Source: Desulfobacterales bacterium
GTDB taxonomy: Bacteria; Desulfobacterota; Desulfobacteria; Desulfobacterales; SpSt-501
Assembly (NCBI GenBank): GCA_030834695.1
Contig: JAUQXK010000097.1
Coordinates: 24,823 to 88,822, forward strand
Reading direction: 5' to 3'
DNA length: 64,000 nucleotides
Position 1 is the stretch's first letter. The number at the start of each line of letters is the position of its first letter. The notes under the pieces are model-generated. The model was given only the letters and a program-made list of their open reading frames with translations. It was not told where the DNA came from and searched no databases. The position numbers and the translations under genes were made by a program. Positions 19,321 to 58,162 of the stretch are shown piece by piece.

Positions 19321-20007
19321 CTATAAACTCTTTCCCGATTGAGCCAGGTCCTTCAGGCCTTGCGCGTCAAGCAAGGCGATTTTCCGGCCTTCGACTTGAA
19401 TGAGCTGCTGGGAAGACAGCTTGGCGAAAATGCGCGAGAGGGTTTCGGGGATCGTGCCGAGGAGGCTGGCCAATTGGCCCTTGGATATGCTCAACGTGAC
19501 CTGATCGAAACAACCCTGTTCATCGGCCAGGTAAAGCAGATAGGTGGCCAGGCGCGCCGGAATCTCCTTGAGCGACAGGTTCTCGATTTGAATCGTGAAC
19601 TGCCGCAGCTTGAGGGATAGATCGGCCAGCAGCTTGAGGGACAACGCCGGGTTTTTTTCGAGCAAGGCGACGAAGGCCGAGCGGGGGAAAAACAGCACGC
19701 GCGCGTCATGAAGGGCTTCCGCATTCGCCGGGAAGTGCTCGCCGGCAAAAACGGGGACCTCCCCGAAGGTCTGCCCGACGGTGAAGATATGCAGGATGTG
19801 CTCCTTGCCGTCGGGGGAGACTTTGAAGATCTTTACGGTTCCCCTAAGAATGACGTAAAAGCCGCTGCCTTCGTCACCCTCGGAGAAAATCAACTCACCT
19901 CGGCCAAAGCTTTTTTCCAGGGCGATGTCCTGGAACTGGTCAAGCTGCGCCCGGCTCATGCCGCTGAAGAGCGGAATCCGCGCGATGACGTCGGCCGCTT
20001 TTTCCAT
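19321..20007 (-). CDS. hcpR: CRP/FNR-family transcriptional regulator, HcpR-like by context
   Basis: 228 aa. cNMP-binding-like beta-roll (GELIFSEGDEGSGFYVILRGTVKIF) plus a C-terminal HTH (SKGQLASLLGTIPETLSRIFAKL). It is divergent from hcp and shares an FNR-type box with it. Confidence 0.75.
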   Translation of the reverse strand: MEKAADVIARIPLFSGMSRAQLDQFQDIALEKSFGRGELIFSEGDEGSGFYVILRGTVKIFKVSPDGKEHILHIFTVGQTFGEVPVFAGEHFPANAEALHDARVLFFPRSAFVALLEKNPALSLKLLADLSLKLRQFTIQIENLSLKEIPARLATYLLYLADEQGCFDQVTLSISKGQLASLLGTIPETLSRIFAKLSSQQLIQVEGRKIALLDAQGLKDLAQSGKSL

Positions 20008-20216: not shown

Positions 20217-20230
20217 TTGATCTAGGTCAA
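20217..20230. promoter_or_regulatory. FNR/CRP-type box TTGATCTAGGTCAA upstream of hcp
   Basis: Palindromic half-sites TTGA...TCAA. The -10-like TAAGAT at 20253-20258 places the box centre near -41.5. It lies 110 bp upstream of hcp ATG. An identical 14-mer is at 22136. Confidence 0.6.
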
Positions 20231-20333
20231 GGCGCACACCTCCGGACGCGAATAAGATCCCGTCCATGTTCAACCCAACGAACCCGACTTCACCGAACAC
20301 GGAAACCGCATCATCAACGAAAGGAGCTGCATC

Positions 20334-21965
20334 ATGTTTTGTTATCAGTGCGAACAGACGTCCAAAGGCGAAGGCTGCACCAAAATCGGCGTTTGCGGCA
20401 AGACCGCCGAGGTCGCGGCCCTGCAGGATCTTCTCATCTATGGTTTGAAGGGGCTTTCCCTGGTGGCCGTCGAGGCCCGCAAACAGAAGCTCGACCTGGC
20501 CGATGTGAACCGCTTCACCCTGCAGGCCACTTTTTCAACGCTGACCAATGTCGATTTCGATCCCGCGCGTTTCGTGGAGCTGATCGGCCGCTGCACGGCG
20601 CTGCGCGAAGACCTGAAAAAGAAAGTGAAGCAAGCCGGGGGCCATGCCGATTTCAGTCAAGAGGCAGCCACATTCGCTCCGGCGGCATCGGTGGAGGCCC
20701 TGGTCGCCCAAGCCGAAAAAACCGGCGGCGTCAAGGCGCCGGCGGCGGATGCCGACGCCCAAGCCCTGCGGGAACTTCTGATCTATGGGCTCAAGGGCAT
20801 CGCGGCGTATGCCGACCACGCCTGGATCTTAGGGAAGAAGGACGACAGCGTCTACGCGTTCATCCAGGAAGCCTTCGCCGCCACCCTGAACCCGGCCCTG
20901 GGCGTGAACGACTACCTCGGTCTGGTGCTCAAGTGCGGCGAAGTCAATCTGAAGGCCATGGAGCTCCTGGATGCCGGCAACACCGGAACCTACGGCCACC
21001 CGGTACCGACCAAGGTTCCGCTCGGTCACAAGAGGGGCAAGGCCATCCTGGTGTCCGGCCACGATCTCAAAGACCTCGATGAAATTCTCAAGCAGAGCGC
21101 CGGCAAGGGGATCAATGTTTACACTCACGGCGAGATGCTGCCCTGTCACGGCTATCCGGAGCTGAAGCAGAAATACCCGCATTTCTTCGGCCACTACGGC
21201 ACGGCCTGGCAGAACCAGGCCAAGGAATTCGCCAAGTTCCCGGGCGCCATCGTCATGACCACCAACTGCATCCAGAAGCCGACCGACACGTACCGGGACA
21301 ACATTTTCACCGCCGGTCTGGTGGGTTGGCCCGGAGTGCAGCACATCGCCGGCGAGAACTTCAAGCCCGCCATCGACAAGGCCCTGGCCCTGCCCGGCTT
21401 CAGTGAAGATGAGGCCGGCAAGGAGGTCATGGTGGGTTTTGCCCGCAACACCGTCATGAGCGTGGCCGGGAAGGTGATCGAGTTGGTCAAGGCCGGCAAG
21501 ATCAAGCACTTCTTCCTGGTGGGCGGCTGCGACGGCGCCAAGCCGGGCCGCAGCTACTACACCGAGTTCGTCGAAAAAGTGCCCCAGGACTGCGTGGTGT
21601 TGACGCTGGCCTGCGGGAAATTCCGCTTCTTCGACCAGGACCTGGGCGCGATCGACGGCATCCCGCGCCTGCTCGATGTGGGCCAGTGCAACGATGCCTA
21701 CTCAGCTATTCAGATCGCCGTCGCGCTCGCCAATGCATTTAACTGCGGGGTCAATGATCTGCCGCTGTCGATGATCCTTTCCTGGTACGAACAGAAGGCG
21801 GTGGCGATCCTGCTGACGCTGCTGCACCTCGGCATCAAGAACATTCGGCTCGGCCCGAGCCTCCCGGCCTTCGTGAGCCCGAATGTGCTCAACGTCCTCG
21901 TGGAGAAGTTCAACATTGCTCCGATCAAAACCCCGGACGAGGACCTCAAGGCGATTCTGAAGTAG
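20334..21965 (+). CDS. hcp: hybrid cluster protein / hydroxylamine reductase
   Basis: 543 aa. N-terminal MFCYQCEQTSKGEGCTKIGVCGK cysteine cluster and Hcp-type sequence throughout. Confidence 0.95.
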   Translation: MFCYQCEQTSKGEGCTKIGVCGKTAEVAALQDLLIYGLKGLSLVAVEARKQKLDLADVNRFTLQATFSTLTNVDFDPARFVELIGRCTALREDLKKKVKQAGGHADFSQEAATFAPAASVEALVAQAEKTGGVKAPAADADAQALRELLIYGLKGIAAYADHAWILGKKDDSVYAFIQEAFAATLNPALGVNDYLGLVLKCGEVNLKAMELLDAGNTGTYGHPVPTKVPLGHKRGKAILVSGHDLKDLDEILKQSAGKGINVYTHGEMLPCHGYPELKQKYPHFFGHYGTAWQNQAKEFAKFPGAIVMTTNCIQKPTDTYRDNIFTAGLVGWPGVQHIAGENFKPAIDKALALPGFSEDEAGKEVMVGFARNTVMSVAGKVIELVKAGKIKHFFLVGGCDGAKPGRSYYTEFVEKVPQDCVVLTLACGKFRFFDQDLGAIDGIPRLLDVGQCNDAYSAIQIAVALANAFNCGVNDLPLSMILSWYEQKAVAILLTLLHLGIKNIRLGPSLPAFVSPNVLNVLVEKFNIAPIKTPDEDLKAILK

Positions 21966-21988
21966 CATCTTCCGTGCGGGGGAGACTC

Positions 21989-22015
21989 CCGGGGCTCCCC
22001 GTCGGGGAGCCCCGG
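21989..22015 (+). terminator. GC-rich hairpin after hcp
   Basis: Perfect 12-bp stem CCGGGGCTCCCC / GGGGAGCCCCGG with a 3-nt loop, 24 nt after the hcp stop. The T-tract is only short (CTCGTTTCGG), so intrinsic termination is plausible but not certain. Confidence 0.5.
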
Positions 22016-22135
22016 CTCGTTTCGGGAGCGAAAGGGATGATGACTTCGGCAGGCGCGCAACTTATGTTGAGGTCCGCCGCGGCGATGCGTGATGTGGACG
22101 AACGAGACATAGGTAATTGCCGGAGCGCTCACCTC

Positions 22136-22149
22136 TTGATCTAGGTCAA
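22136..22149. promoter_or_regulatory. second identical FNR/CRP-type box TTGATCTAGGTCAA
   Basis: Identical to 20217-20230. The -10-like TAGAAT at 22173-22178 places the centre near -42.5. It lies 76 bp upstream of ATG 22219. Confidence 0.6.
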
Positions 22150-22218
22150 AGACACGTTGAGTAGGGCTGCGATAGAATCGGCGTCAATGAGTTCAACCTG
22201 CCTCAAGGAGCTGTAGCC

Positions 22219-22896
22219 ATGCGATGCCCTGGCCAAGACATGCAATACTGGAAACCGGGCGCCATCTTCGAGTCCAATTGTCCGCAATGCGGAAATCCCG
22301 TGGAGTTTTTTAAGGACGACACGGCACGCAAATGCGGCCGGTGCGGCCATCGTTTCGTCAACCCGCAGATGGACTTCGGTTGCGCCGCCTATTGCCCCTA
22401 CGCCGAGCAGTGCCTCGGTACGATGCCGGAGGGGCTTGCCGCCCAAAAGGAAAACCTGCTGAAGGACCGCGTCGCCGTTGAGATGAAGCGCTACTTCCGG
22501 AACGACTTCAAGCGCATCGGCCGTGCCGGCCGGGTGGCCCGGTATGCGGAGCGCATCGGCAAGGCCGAAACGGGCAACCTGGCGGTCATCCTGACGGCGG
22601 CCTACCTGCTGGACATCGACGGCCCGGCCGCCGCGCGCGATATCCTCACCCGACTCGGCGCCCGCGAGGACCTGATCGCCGAGGTCTGTGACATCATCAT
22701 CCATCACCGGTCGTCGCAGACCGGCGACGCCGTCAATCTCCGGGCCGTGTATGACGCCGATGCGCTGGAGTTCCTGGAAGCGGAACACAAACAACATCCC
22801 ATCGATGCCGACGAACTGGCTGCGCGCATCGAACGTTCCTTTTTGACCGCGTCCGGCCGTCAGGCGGCACGGGAAACTCTCATCACTTCGAGGTGA
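22219..22896 (+). CDS. zinc-ribbon + degenerate HD-like domain protein (unknown function)
   Basis: 225 aa. The N-terminus CPG...CPQCG...KCGRCG is homologous to the 26110 ORF. The C-terminus resembles an HD phosphohydrolase scaffold, but reads AAYLLDID where AALLHDIG is expected. Confidence 0.7.
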   Translation: MRCPGQDMQYWKPGAIFESNCPQCGNPVEFFKDDTARKCGRCGHRFVNPQMDFGCAAYCPYAEQCLGTMPEGLAAQKENLLKDRVAVEMKRYFRNDFKRIGRAGRVARYAERIGKAETGNLAVILTAAYLLDIDGPAAARDILTRLGAREDLIAEVCDIIIHHRSSQTGDAVNLRAVYDADALEFLEAEHKQHPIDADELAARIERSFLTASGRQAARETLITSR

Positions 22897-22900
22897 TACC

Positions 22901-23656
22901 ATGAAAGTCATCCGCAAAATCATCAAGATCGACGAAGACCTGTGTAACGGATGCGGCAACTGCGTGCCGGCCTGCGCCGAAGGGGCTCTGGAGATCATCG
23001 ACGGCAAGGCGCGCGTGATCGCCGACATCTACTGCGACGGGCTGGGGGCCTGCCTGGGGGAATGCCCGACCGGCGCCCTGACCATCTCGGAACGGCAGGC
23101 CGACGAGTTTGACGAGCATGCCGTGGAAACGATGCTGGCGGCGAAAGAGAAGACCCCGGAGACTTCCAAGGTGCTGCCCATGGCCGCCGGCGGCTGCCCG
23201 TCGGCCCGCATGGTACAAAGCTTTGGGTCCGCTCCCGCGGCCGCCCCTGTTGCCGGAGAACCCGTTGAATCGGCGCTCAGCCATTGGCCCGTCCAGATCA
23301 TGCTGGTGCCGCCGACGGCGCCGTTTCTGAAGGGGGCGGACCTCCTGGTGCTTGCCGATTGTGTTCCCGTGGCCTTCCCGACCCTCCACCGCGATTTTCT
23401 GCAGGGCAAACGCGTGATGCTCGGCTGTCCCAAGTTCGACAATGCCGAGGCGTATATCGACAAGTTTACTCAAATCTGCAAACAGTCCGGCATCCGCAGC
23501 ATTACTTCGGTGGTCATGGAGGTGCCCTGCTGCGCCGCCCTGCCGGTGATCGTCCAAAAAGGCATGCAGCGTTCCGGCGTCAAGGTGCCGCTGGAGGAAG
23601 TGGTCATCAGCGTGCGCGGCAAAATTATGCAACGCCGCCAGATAGCGACGGCTTGA
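22901..23656 (+). CDS. 4Fe-4S ferredoxin-domain protein (FrdX-like partner of hcp)
   Basis: 251 aa. N-terminal CNGCGNCVPACAEGAL and CDGLGACLGECPTGAL dicluster motifs, plus a Cys-containing C-terminal domain. Confidence 0.75.
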   Translation: MKVIRKIIKIDEDLCNGCGNCVPACAEGALEIIDGKARVIADIYCDGLGACLGECPTGALTISERQADEFDEHAVETMLAAKEKTPETSKVLPMAAGGCPSARMVQSFGSAPAAAPVAGEPVESALSHWPVQIMLVPPTAPFLKGADLLVLADCVPVAFPTLHRDFLQGKRVMLGCPKFDNAEAYIDKFTQICKQSGIRSITSVVMEVPCCAALPVIVQKGMQRSGVKVPLEEVVISVRGKIMQRRQIATA

Positions 23657-23944
23657 TCCTGTCTTGTGAGACACGCCTGTTCCACAAATCAACCCGAGAC
23701 TAGATTGCATTGTCATTTTCGGTGTGATATTCAGAGATTGTTTGACGATATCCCTGATCACCGCCGGCATGGATCGATGCGGTTTTGTATCGGGTTCGCG
23801 TGGCGGGAATGGATCACGGTCTTGCCGCCCGGGCCTCACCGTGAGACCAAACATCTATAATTCAAGCTGTTACAGGCACCCGCCGCTCCTGTTCTCCTCT
23901 GGCATGAAATTTGATTAAGCCACCATGGCTCAAAGCACTTCGCT

Positions 23945-24187
23945 ATGCCGGAAGGAAACGCCGTGAGGCCCTGCAATCTTCATATCGTCAAAACGTTGAA
24001 GTTGACGGAAGAAATGATTCATTTGGCCGACCGCGGCGAGGCGGACCGTGAAGACAACGGATGCGGGATTCTCTACGGAGTCTTGCGGGATTCGGCTTAC
24101 AAGCTCAAGAAATTGGCTGAAGCGGAAAAGCAAAACCACATCCGGAAGGGCTGGTGGGCCCGAAAGGACGACGAAGCCGATCCGTAA
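23945..24187 (+). CDS. small conserved-looking hypothetical protein (80 aa)
   Basis: ATG 23945. MPEGNAVRPCNLHIVKTLKLTEEMIHLADRGEADREDNGCGILYGVLRDSAYKLKKLAE... No family named. It lies directly upstream of rbr. Confidence 0.5.
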   Translation: MPEGNAVRPCNLHIVKTLKLTEEMIHLADRGEADREDNGCGILYGVLRDSAYKLKKLAEAEKQNHIRKGWWARKDDEADP

Positions 24188-57721: not shown

Positions 57722-58162
57722 ATGAAGACAAGACGCAGGTACTTGGCGGAGGCGTTAAAGCACCCGGCCGAAAGCCGTCAATCAAAGAAAGCATCCCGGA
57801 AACGAAGCATGAGTCTGCTGAGCATGGCCCTGCTGGGTGCGGTTTTATTCTGCGGAACGGCTGCTCATTCGGCCATGACCGGAGCCGATTTCCTGCAAGC
57901 CCCCCAATCGTACCAGAGTGGTTTCGTCAATGGATTCGTTAGAGGCATGTATTCGACCTGCCTGGACCATCTCGAGACCAGGAAAGAAATCTGTTCCTTT
58001 GCTCCTCAACTCGATGCCGCCTTCGACATGACCCCTGAACAGGTCCTGGATCTTTTCTTGAGCTACATCAAAAAGAATAGTGCGCTCCAGCAAAAAGAAG
58101 CATCCGAGTTGCTCGTCGACTGCCTGAAAGAGACTGCCAATAAACCAGCCAATCCCCAGTAA
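57722..58162 (+). CDS. secreted hypothetical protein
   Basis: 146 aa (alternative start at 57809, MSLLSMALLG...). Signal peptide LLGAVLFCGTAAHSA. No family recognised. Confidence 0.5.
   Translation: MKTRRRYLAEALKHPAESRQSKKASRKRSMSLLSMALLGAVLFCGTAAHSAMTGADFLQAPQSYQSGFVNGFVRGMYSTCLDHLETRKEICSFAPQLDAAFDMTPEQVLDLFLSYIKKNSALQQKEASELLVDCLKETANKPANPQ

Follow-up and report, generated by a model that had tools for sequence, protein, structure and literature searches.

The 64,000-nucleotide stretch of Desulfobacterales DNA analyzed here (the window, G000:C30:24823-88822) carries, beside a gene for a CRP/FNR-family regulator, the same 14-base box twice, once in front of hcp, which encodes a hybrid cluster protein, and once in front of a gene pair for a Zn-ribbon protein and a FrdX-like protein. 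The question raised by this locus is whether the boxes are sites of that regulator and, if so, how far its control extends. A reading made from the DNA letters alone (hereafter the sequence-only reading) had taken the arrangement for a two-promoter, HcpR-like regulon with class II activator geometry. That interpretation is largely right: the case is one of the known HcpR regulon kind, here in an uncultured Desulfobacterales genome, and the earlier account was correct in kind and too narrow in extent. Judged by sequence and conservation, the two 14-base boxes are genuine conserved sites of the known HcpR type, with predicted binding, and the regulon would comprise at least six promoters under the one CRP/FNR regulator of the genome.

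The boxes in the genome and in its relatives

The two boxes and the promoter elements predicted for them are the following.

20217..20230, plus strand: HcpR box 1, TTGATCTAGGTCAA, in the divergent hcpR-hcp intergenic region; top genome match with the relatives-only matrix, 33.5 bits
20253..20258, plus strand: predicted -10 hexamer TAAGAT of the hcp promoter, 22 nucleotides (nt) past box 1; GGCGCA at the -35 position is no match
22136..22149, plus strand: HcpR box 2, TTGATCTAGGTCAA, upstream of the Zn-ribbon/FrdX-like pair; second-best genome match with the relatives-only matrix, 31.3 bits
22173..22178, plus strand: predicted -10 hexamer TAGAAT, 23 nt past box 2; the -35-like AAGACA overlaps the end of the box

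The double occurrence of the 14-mer noticed in the sequence-only reading is exact, the two copies being identical in every letter, and they are the only exact copies of TTGATCTAGGTCAA in the whole 5,647,560-base genome (an assembly of 5.65 Mb in 149 contigs with 59.7% G+C and 15.5% non-coding sequence, rated 100% complete), against an expected count of 0.006. All expected counts given here are analytic expectations under a first-order Markov model. The symmetry of the box is imperfect, with 12 of 14 positions self-complementary and arms TTGAT and GTCAA. The sequences flanking the two copies are unrelated to each other, so that the copies are not parts of a duplicated segment. The loose pattern TTGAYNNNNRTCAA occurs genome-wide 29 times versus about 17 expected (1.7-fold), with 9 copies intergenic and 20 in coding sequence, and is for that reason weak evidence by itself. 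The refined pattern TTGAYNTANRTCAA, the central TA of which was taken from sites in relatives, occurs six times versus 0.34 expected, with all six copies intergenic. Of the two, the loose pattern is the one suggested by the sequence-only reading.

The six copies of the refined motif lie at the following sites, given with contig and position.

C30:45039 (window 20217): hcp
C30:46958 (window 22136): Zn-ribbon/FrdX pair
C39:27667: hcp2
C39:25201: narGH
C62:38731: nrfHA
C14:9304: hdrCB-like pair

With four further high-quality boxes outside the window (hcp2, narGH, nrfHA and the hdrCB-like pair), the term "two-promoter regulon" no longer fits. The identity of the genes behind these boxes follows from family matches: narG scores 1802 bits with TIGR01580 and narH 754 bits, NrfH 141.7 bits with TIGR03153, the cytochrome c552 (PF02335, nrfA) 500.8 bits and hcp2 811 bits, and the hdrCB-like pair carries Fer4 and CCG domains. 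Both narG and nrfH-nrfA are preceded by TTGACTTAAGTCAA. Limits of the regulon were set with the 14-nt refined pattern; a 20-nt matrix with flanks marks down the nrfH box for its flanks. The best genome sites found with the relatives-only matrix, all four intergenic, are those of hcp1 (33.5 bits), the Zn-ribbon gene (31.3 bits), the hdrCB-like pair (29.2 bits) and hcp2 (26.3 bits), and the narG site scores 20.6 bits. Within the window, a near-match, TTGATGTAGCTCAA, at 58058-58071 on the minus strand (22.5 bits with the relatives' matrix) lies inside a coding frame and is therefore probably due to chance.

The same boxes recur in related genomes. The closest public records are metagenome-assembled genomes labeled uncultured Desulfatibacillum sp., Desulfobacterales bacterium or delta proteobacterium, with Desulfonema, Desulfosarcina, Desulforhopalus and Desulfopila as farther relatives. 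The regulator is present in 36 of 41 related genomes, and a single TTGAY-N4-RTCAA box lies between it and hcp or the Zn-ribbon/FrdX pair at 27 of the 30 loci fetched; the regulators of those relatives show 57-94% protein identity, and the flanks around the box diverge. Ahead of the Zn-ribbon gene the box is found in about 17 of the 30 relative loci, 67-114 nt before the gene start. The Zn-ribbon gene itself occurs in 35 of the 41 genomes, always with the FrdX-like gene next to it. The regulator is divergent from hcp in most relatives and from the Zn-ribbon/FrdX pair in some; at the relative loci L019, L030-L034 and L036 it faces this pair, not hcp. Since this divergent arrangement is seen in several relatives, the link of the uncharacterized pair to HcpR is as close as that of hcp. 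Conservation was checked at three of the four sites outside the window, and each is conserved: the narG box is present in 15 of 18 relative loci, the nrfH box in 17 of 20 and the hdrC box in four of four true orthologues, in each case with a TA-starting hexamer at a gap of 22-23 nt.

Among 34 non-redundant sites from relatives the TTGA and TCAA arms are invariant and the central TA is found in 31-34. As the genomes are related and the counts not independent, the following figures indicate a tendency: hcp/Zn-ribbon boxes are mostly the asymmetric TTGATnTAGGTCAA, with T at position 5 in 24 of the 34 sites, and narG and nrfH boxes are the perfect palindrome TTGACTTAAGTCAA, with C at position 5 in 14/15 and 16/17. 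The orthologous boxes of relatives vary at positions 5, 6 and 9, and the flanks are unrelated, so that no special meaning attaches to the full identity of the two window copies noted in the sequence-only reading.

We considered whether the two 14-mers could lack any regulatory role and have arisen by chance or as what is left of a local duplication. The mere 1.7-fold enrichment of TTGAYNNNNRTCAA and its 20 coding copies out of 29 would be in keeping with chance, but the exact 14-mer has an expectation of 0.006, its flanks are unrelated, the orthologous boxes persist at 57-94% regulator identity as their surroundings diverge, and all six copies of TTGAYNTANRTCAA are intergenic and upstream of nitrogen-oxide genes. 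This explanation is already contradicted by the conservation data, and we give it practically no weight.

Promoter geometry, the regulator and the mode of control

At class II promoters, with the -10 hexamer taking up -12 to -7, an activator site centered at -41.5 leaves a gap of 22 nt. With the hexamers listed above, transcription of hcp is predicted to start near 20265, which would place the center of box 1 at about -41.5, and that of the Zn-ribbon unit near 22184-22185, with box 2 centered at about -42.5. A scan for sigma-70 consensus promoters called none at hcp box 1; it called AAGACA-18-TAGAAT at 22149-22178 as the Zn-ribbon promoter, with AAGACA matching at 4 of 6 positions. A poor or absent -35 element, a class II trait, fits both hcp (GGCGCA) and the Zn-ribbon gene (AAGACA overlapping the box). 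In relatives, TAnnnT follows the box at a gap of 22 nt in 26 of 34 sites and at 23 nt in five, other gaps accounting for 0-4, and in the genome studied here a TA-starting hexamer lies 22-23 nt past the box at each of the six promoters. The class II spacing proposed in the sequence-only reading, 22 and 23 nt at the two window promoters, is thus seen as 22-23 nt at 31 of the 34 sites in relatives.

The regulator that the sequence-only reading had placed, divergently encoded, next to hcp is present there and is HcpR-like.

19321..20007, minus strand: hcpR, CRP/FNR-family regulator of 228 amino acids (aa); cNMP_binding PF00027, E 6e-25; HTH_Crp_2 PF13545, E 2e-17

It contains one Cys in 228 residues (within EQGCFDQ) and so cannot hold an FNR-type cluster: of the four Cys ligands typical of FNR proper, three N-terminal and one central, this lone residue cannot provide the set, and the NCBIfam Fnr model gives 67.7 bits, below the cut-off of 228. 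Among solved structures the closest match is DNR (3dkw, E 8e-30, residues 13-218), and the recognition helix GTIPETLSRIF (P-E-T-L-S-R) aligns with QPETFSRIM (P-E-T-F-S-R) of DNR. With the CRP numbering placed by eye, Pro occupies CRP position 180 and Glu181 is kept, in line with the HcpR1 helix rule, by which Ser or Pro and not Arg at position 180, with Glu181 kept, goes with a TTGA-type and not a TGTGA-type motif (PMC1274295); in terms of the motif, a T as its third base goes with S or P, not R, at position 180 (PMC1274295).

Six-frame genome searches with PF13545 and PF00325, together with phmmer on the set of open reading frames (ORFs), gave no second CRP/FNR-type regulator: PF00325 had zero matches in the six-frame search, and PF13545 had no other match above cut-off. 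Sub-threshold HTH_Crp_2 matches (C52, C128, C14, C34 and C129) were discarded, as no frame or sequence of the CRP/FNR type is found there; on reading, these proteins look like GntR/FadR-like or other regulators. The remaining frames with a domain for binding cyclic nucleotide monophosphates (cNMP) have different lengths and are domain-only proteins or have other architectures. Several stand-alone cNMP-binding proteins are encoded in the genome. One of 169 aa, with the cNMP-binding domain only, lies on the minus strand upstream of the nrfHA box (L103:2500-3858 and beyond; G000:C62:39108-40972), where the same strand also carries a 344-aa radical-SAM-like gene and a 101-aa winged-helix-like gene, both labels coming from reading the sequence.

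Taken together, the data are very probably best explained by a DNR-like HcpR dimer that acts by class II activation on hcp, on the Zn-ribbon/FrdX-like pair and on four further promoters, with NO (nitric oxide) as the likely signal. The dimer would bind each TTGAT-N4-GTCAA box through its E/S/R recognition helix. With the box ending 22-23 nt before the -10 hexamer, the center would come to lie at about -41.5 or -42.5, over the missing or weak -35 element, and from there the dimer would recruit sigma-70 RNA polymerase, that is, activate in the class II manner. Two units would be switched on in this way, hcp itself and the Zn-ribbon/FrdX-like pair that lies beyond a hairpin. The regulator would also serve at least four promoters elsewhere, those of hcp2, narGH, nrfHA and the hdrCB-like pair, and the regulon may thereby couple nitrate/nitrite ammonification with detoxification of the by-products NO and hydroxylamine. 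Analogy with characterized proteins points to NO, or NO formed from nitrite, as the most likely signal, with haem as the means of sensing: DNR activates in response to NO (PMC1274295), the haem-binding HcpR1 of D. desulfuricans has an operon that NO induces (PMC5701242), and P. gingivalis HcpR is described as haem-dependent and haem-binding (PMC12750200). Binding by this protein, activation over repression, the start sites and the signal are thus what we infer.

Several points weigh against this explanation. The -10 hexamers are predictions, and TAAGAT fits four of the six consensus positions; no haem ligand was identified in the regulator sequence; and two relatives, G006 and G016, have boxes and no regulator match, their assemblies being 84% and 91% complete. 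In addition, D. desulfuricans HcpR2 has been modeled as a repressor (PMC5701242), so that family membership alone leaves the sign of regulation unfixed.

The same regulator might indeed act at the boxes as a repressor, or in a dual manner, sitting over the -35 position and blocking RNA polymerase until inactivated by NO, like D. desulfuricans HcpR2. The overlap of the box with the -35 position and the repressor model for one HcpR paralogue (PMC5701242) are compatible with this. We nevertheless rate it as very unlikely, in that the hcp promoter has no usable -35 element (GGCGCA) and looks activator-dependent, and in that box and -10 hexamer keep their exact distance of 22-23 nt over six promoter types and dozens of genomes, which speaks for recruitment because recruitment needs phasing and occlusion does not. 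The HcpR2 model, moreover, rests on Fe-S clusters (PMC5701242), one of which the single-Cys protein found here cannot hold, and Rodionov et al. predict that sites at -35 or a little upstream of it serve activation (PMC545781).

The boxes and the activation geometry could also hold with a signal other than NO, be it anoxia or redox state in an FNR-like fashion, nitrate or nitrite directly, or a nucleotide. The effector is assigned by analogy, the protein is the sole CRP/FNR protein of the genome, narGH and nrfHA are respiratory and not detoxification genes, and a weaker box stands before nrdD, a classical FNR target. That box, however, lacks the conserved central TA, and the FNR Cys cluster is absent from the regulator, to which the NO sensor DNR comes closest among solved structures. 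As hcp, the hallmark target of the family, is nitrite/NO-responsive in every system studied (PMC1274295, PMC5701242), we think a different signal unlikely and keep to NO-responsive class II activation.

Genes around the boxes and use of the map

The gene content given in the sequence-only reading (CRP/FNR regulator, hcp, Zn-ribbon protein and Fer4 protein) is found as described, with a hairpin between the two predicted units.

20334..21965, plus strand: hcp, hybrid cluster protein (hydroxylamine reductase family), 543 aa; Prismane E 1e-171; NF003658 825.8 bits, cut-off 367
21990..22014, plus strand: GC-rich hairpin with an 11-bp all-G+C stem and a 3-nt loop, directly past the hcp stop and before box 2
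22219..22896, plus strand: Zn-ribbon protein, 225 aa, without a curated family; a sub-threshold Zn_ribbon_NUD match alone and no NCBIfam match
22901..23656, plus strand: FrdX-like ferredoxin-domain protein, 251 aa, with N-terminal 2x[4Fe-4S] motifs; Fer4 matches at residues 7-60

The FrdX-like label is assigned from context only. The region 21960-22050 folds with -45.7 kcal/mol (z = -2.05), and the hairpin, followed by a weak U tract CUCGUUUC and not called by a simple terminator scan, may act as a partial terminator or attenuator between the two HcpR-controlled units. Downstream of the Fer4 gene lie genes for rubrerythrin and desulfoferrodoxin and a flavodoxin gene. Within the window no further credible box was found before rbr, dfx, the rubredoxins or the FDP gene, and the island is thus split as the sequence-only reading had it, the rest of the oxidative-stress island being without a box. 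A search for inverted repeats as a second control element before rbr, dfx and the flavodoxin gene gave nothing convincing. Just upstream of rubrerythrin lies an 80-aa ORF (23945-24187, without NCBIfam match) with a perfect TATAAT ahead of it (23856-23861), and the stretch 23856-24187 has neither an HcpR box nor a clear inverted repeat.

Outside the window, two other Prismane-family genes (C25 and C128) were dismissed as hcp candidates, being CooS-type, 633-661 aa in length and without a box upstream. Weaker intergenic boxes before nrdD, before the gene for a SpoIIE-type phosphatase (C68), before msrAB (C85, with one arm mismatch) and at C114 were left out of the regulon because each is without the central TA, without a properly spaced -10 hexamer, or without either. 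The nrdD box, TTGATGAAAGTCAA, lies at G000:C30:148479-148492, 175 nt upstream of nrdD (PF13597, 643.6 bits), and has no central TA; nrdD, for anaerobic ribonucleotide reductase, is a classical FNR target in E. coli. At the hdrCB-like operon (L073:1451-1503; G000:C14:9304-9356) the box is followed by 22 nt, TAAATT, 8 nt and ATG. The distance from box to ATG is 36 nt in five of five orthologous loci (L073-L077), no Shine-Dalgarno sequence was found at this start, and no alternative in-frame start was found ahead of the first Cys motif. This arrangement suggests that the hdrCB-like mRNA is leaderless and driven by an HcpR class II promoter.

What results is a clean, conserved regulatory map of nitrogen-oxide metabolism in uncultured relatives of sulfate reducers, with one regulator and six promoters, which links nitrate/nitrite respiration to Hcp-based detoxification and singles out the uncharacterized Zn-ribbon/FrdX-like and hdrCB-like pairs as probable members of the Hcp system. 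As a broader and tentative proposal, rather doubtful as a whole, a single HcpR-type protein, the sole CRP/FNR protein of the genome, might be the master switch for nitrate/nitrite ammonification (narGH, nrfHA) and for detoxification of NO and hydroxylamine (both hcp genes, Zn-ribbon/FrdX, hdrCB-like), with palindromic TTGACTTAAGTCAA boxes at the respiratory operons versus asymmetric TTGATnTAGGTCAA boxes at the detoxification operons setting graded induction. Unrecognized partners of Hcp would then be the hdrCB-like pair, apparently leaderless, and the conserved Zn-ribbon protein. The understanding of HcpR is unchanged by the map, since predictions made twenty years ago for neighboring lineages already covered motif, regulator type and regulon content, and its use lies chiefly in annotation.

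Comparison with known systems

With the class II FNR/CRP promoters of E. coli (centered at -41.5) the promoters described here share a 14-bp TTGA-N6-TCAA box that ends 22 nt before the -10 hexamer and a weak or absent -35 element; they differ in that the regulator is without the [4Fe-4S] ligands and is hence not an FNR-type O2 sensor. DNR of Pseudomonas aeruginosa (3dkw), a haem-based, NO-responsive activator of denitrification, has in common with the present protein the recognition residues P-E-T-x-S-R and an FNR-type box, TTGATnnnnATCAA (PMC1274295). Its targets are nir, nor and nos in a denitrifier; the present lineage is one of sulfate reducers, and the targets are hcp, frdX, nar and nrf. 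The sequence similarity is at the family level only, and haem and NO response are ascribed to the protein here by analogy. Other HcpR proteins share the role of controlling hcp, and often frdX, in anaerobes under nitrosative stress but differ in DNA motif and helix residues: Desulfovibrio HcpR has the CRP-like motif TGTGA-N6-TCACA and helix residue R180, and HcpR2/HcpR of Clostridia, Bacteroidetes and Porphyromonas gingivalis have GTAAC-N4-GTTAC and variants, with P181 in HcpR2 (PMC1274295). The boxes found here do not fit these motifs.

The closest match is the HcpR1 regulon of non-Desulfovibrio delta-proteobacteria (Geobacter, Desulfuromonas and Desulfotalea) predicted by Rodionov et al. in 2004 (PMC545781) and 2005 (PMC1274295). 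There the motif atTTGAccnnggTCAAat, also given as wyTTGACnnnnGTCAArw, precedes hcp and frdX paralogues, the regulator adjoins hcp, the regulon reaches nrfHA, ndh and nar, and activation was predicted from sites at or just upstream of -35 (PMC545781, PMC1274295). Every sequence-level defining feature of this regulon is found in the genome studied here: a CRP/FNR regulator without the FNR Cys motif that adjoins hcp, Pro and not Arg at helix position 180 with Glu181 kept, an FNR-like palindrome before both hcp genes and the Zn-ribbon/FrdX-like pair, and extension to nar and nrfHA as in Geobacter and Desulfuromonas. The Desulfobulbales relatives of the regulator are about 60-64% identical to it, and it is likened to the Desulfotalea and Geobacter proteins by these shared features. 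The present system differs in its host, an uncultured Desulfobacterales lineage outside those papers (PMC545781, PMC1274295), in the asymmetry of its hcp/Zn-ribbon boxes (TTGAT...GGTCAA) with their conserved central TA, and in its content, with the Zn-ribbon protein ahead of frdX as a conserved member and the hdrCB-like pair as an additional conserved target.

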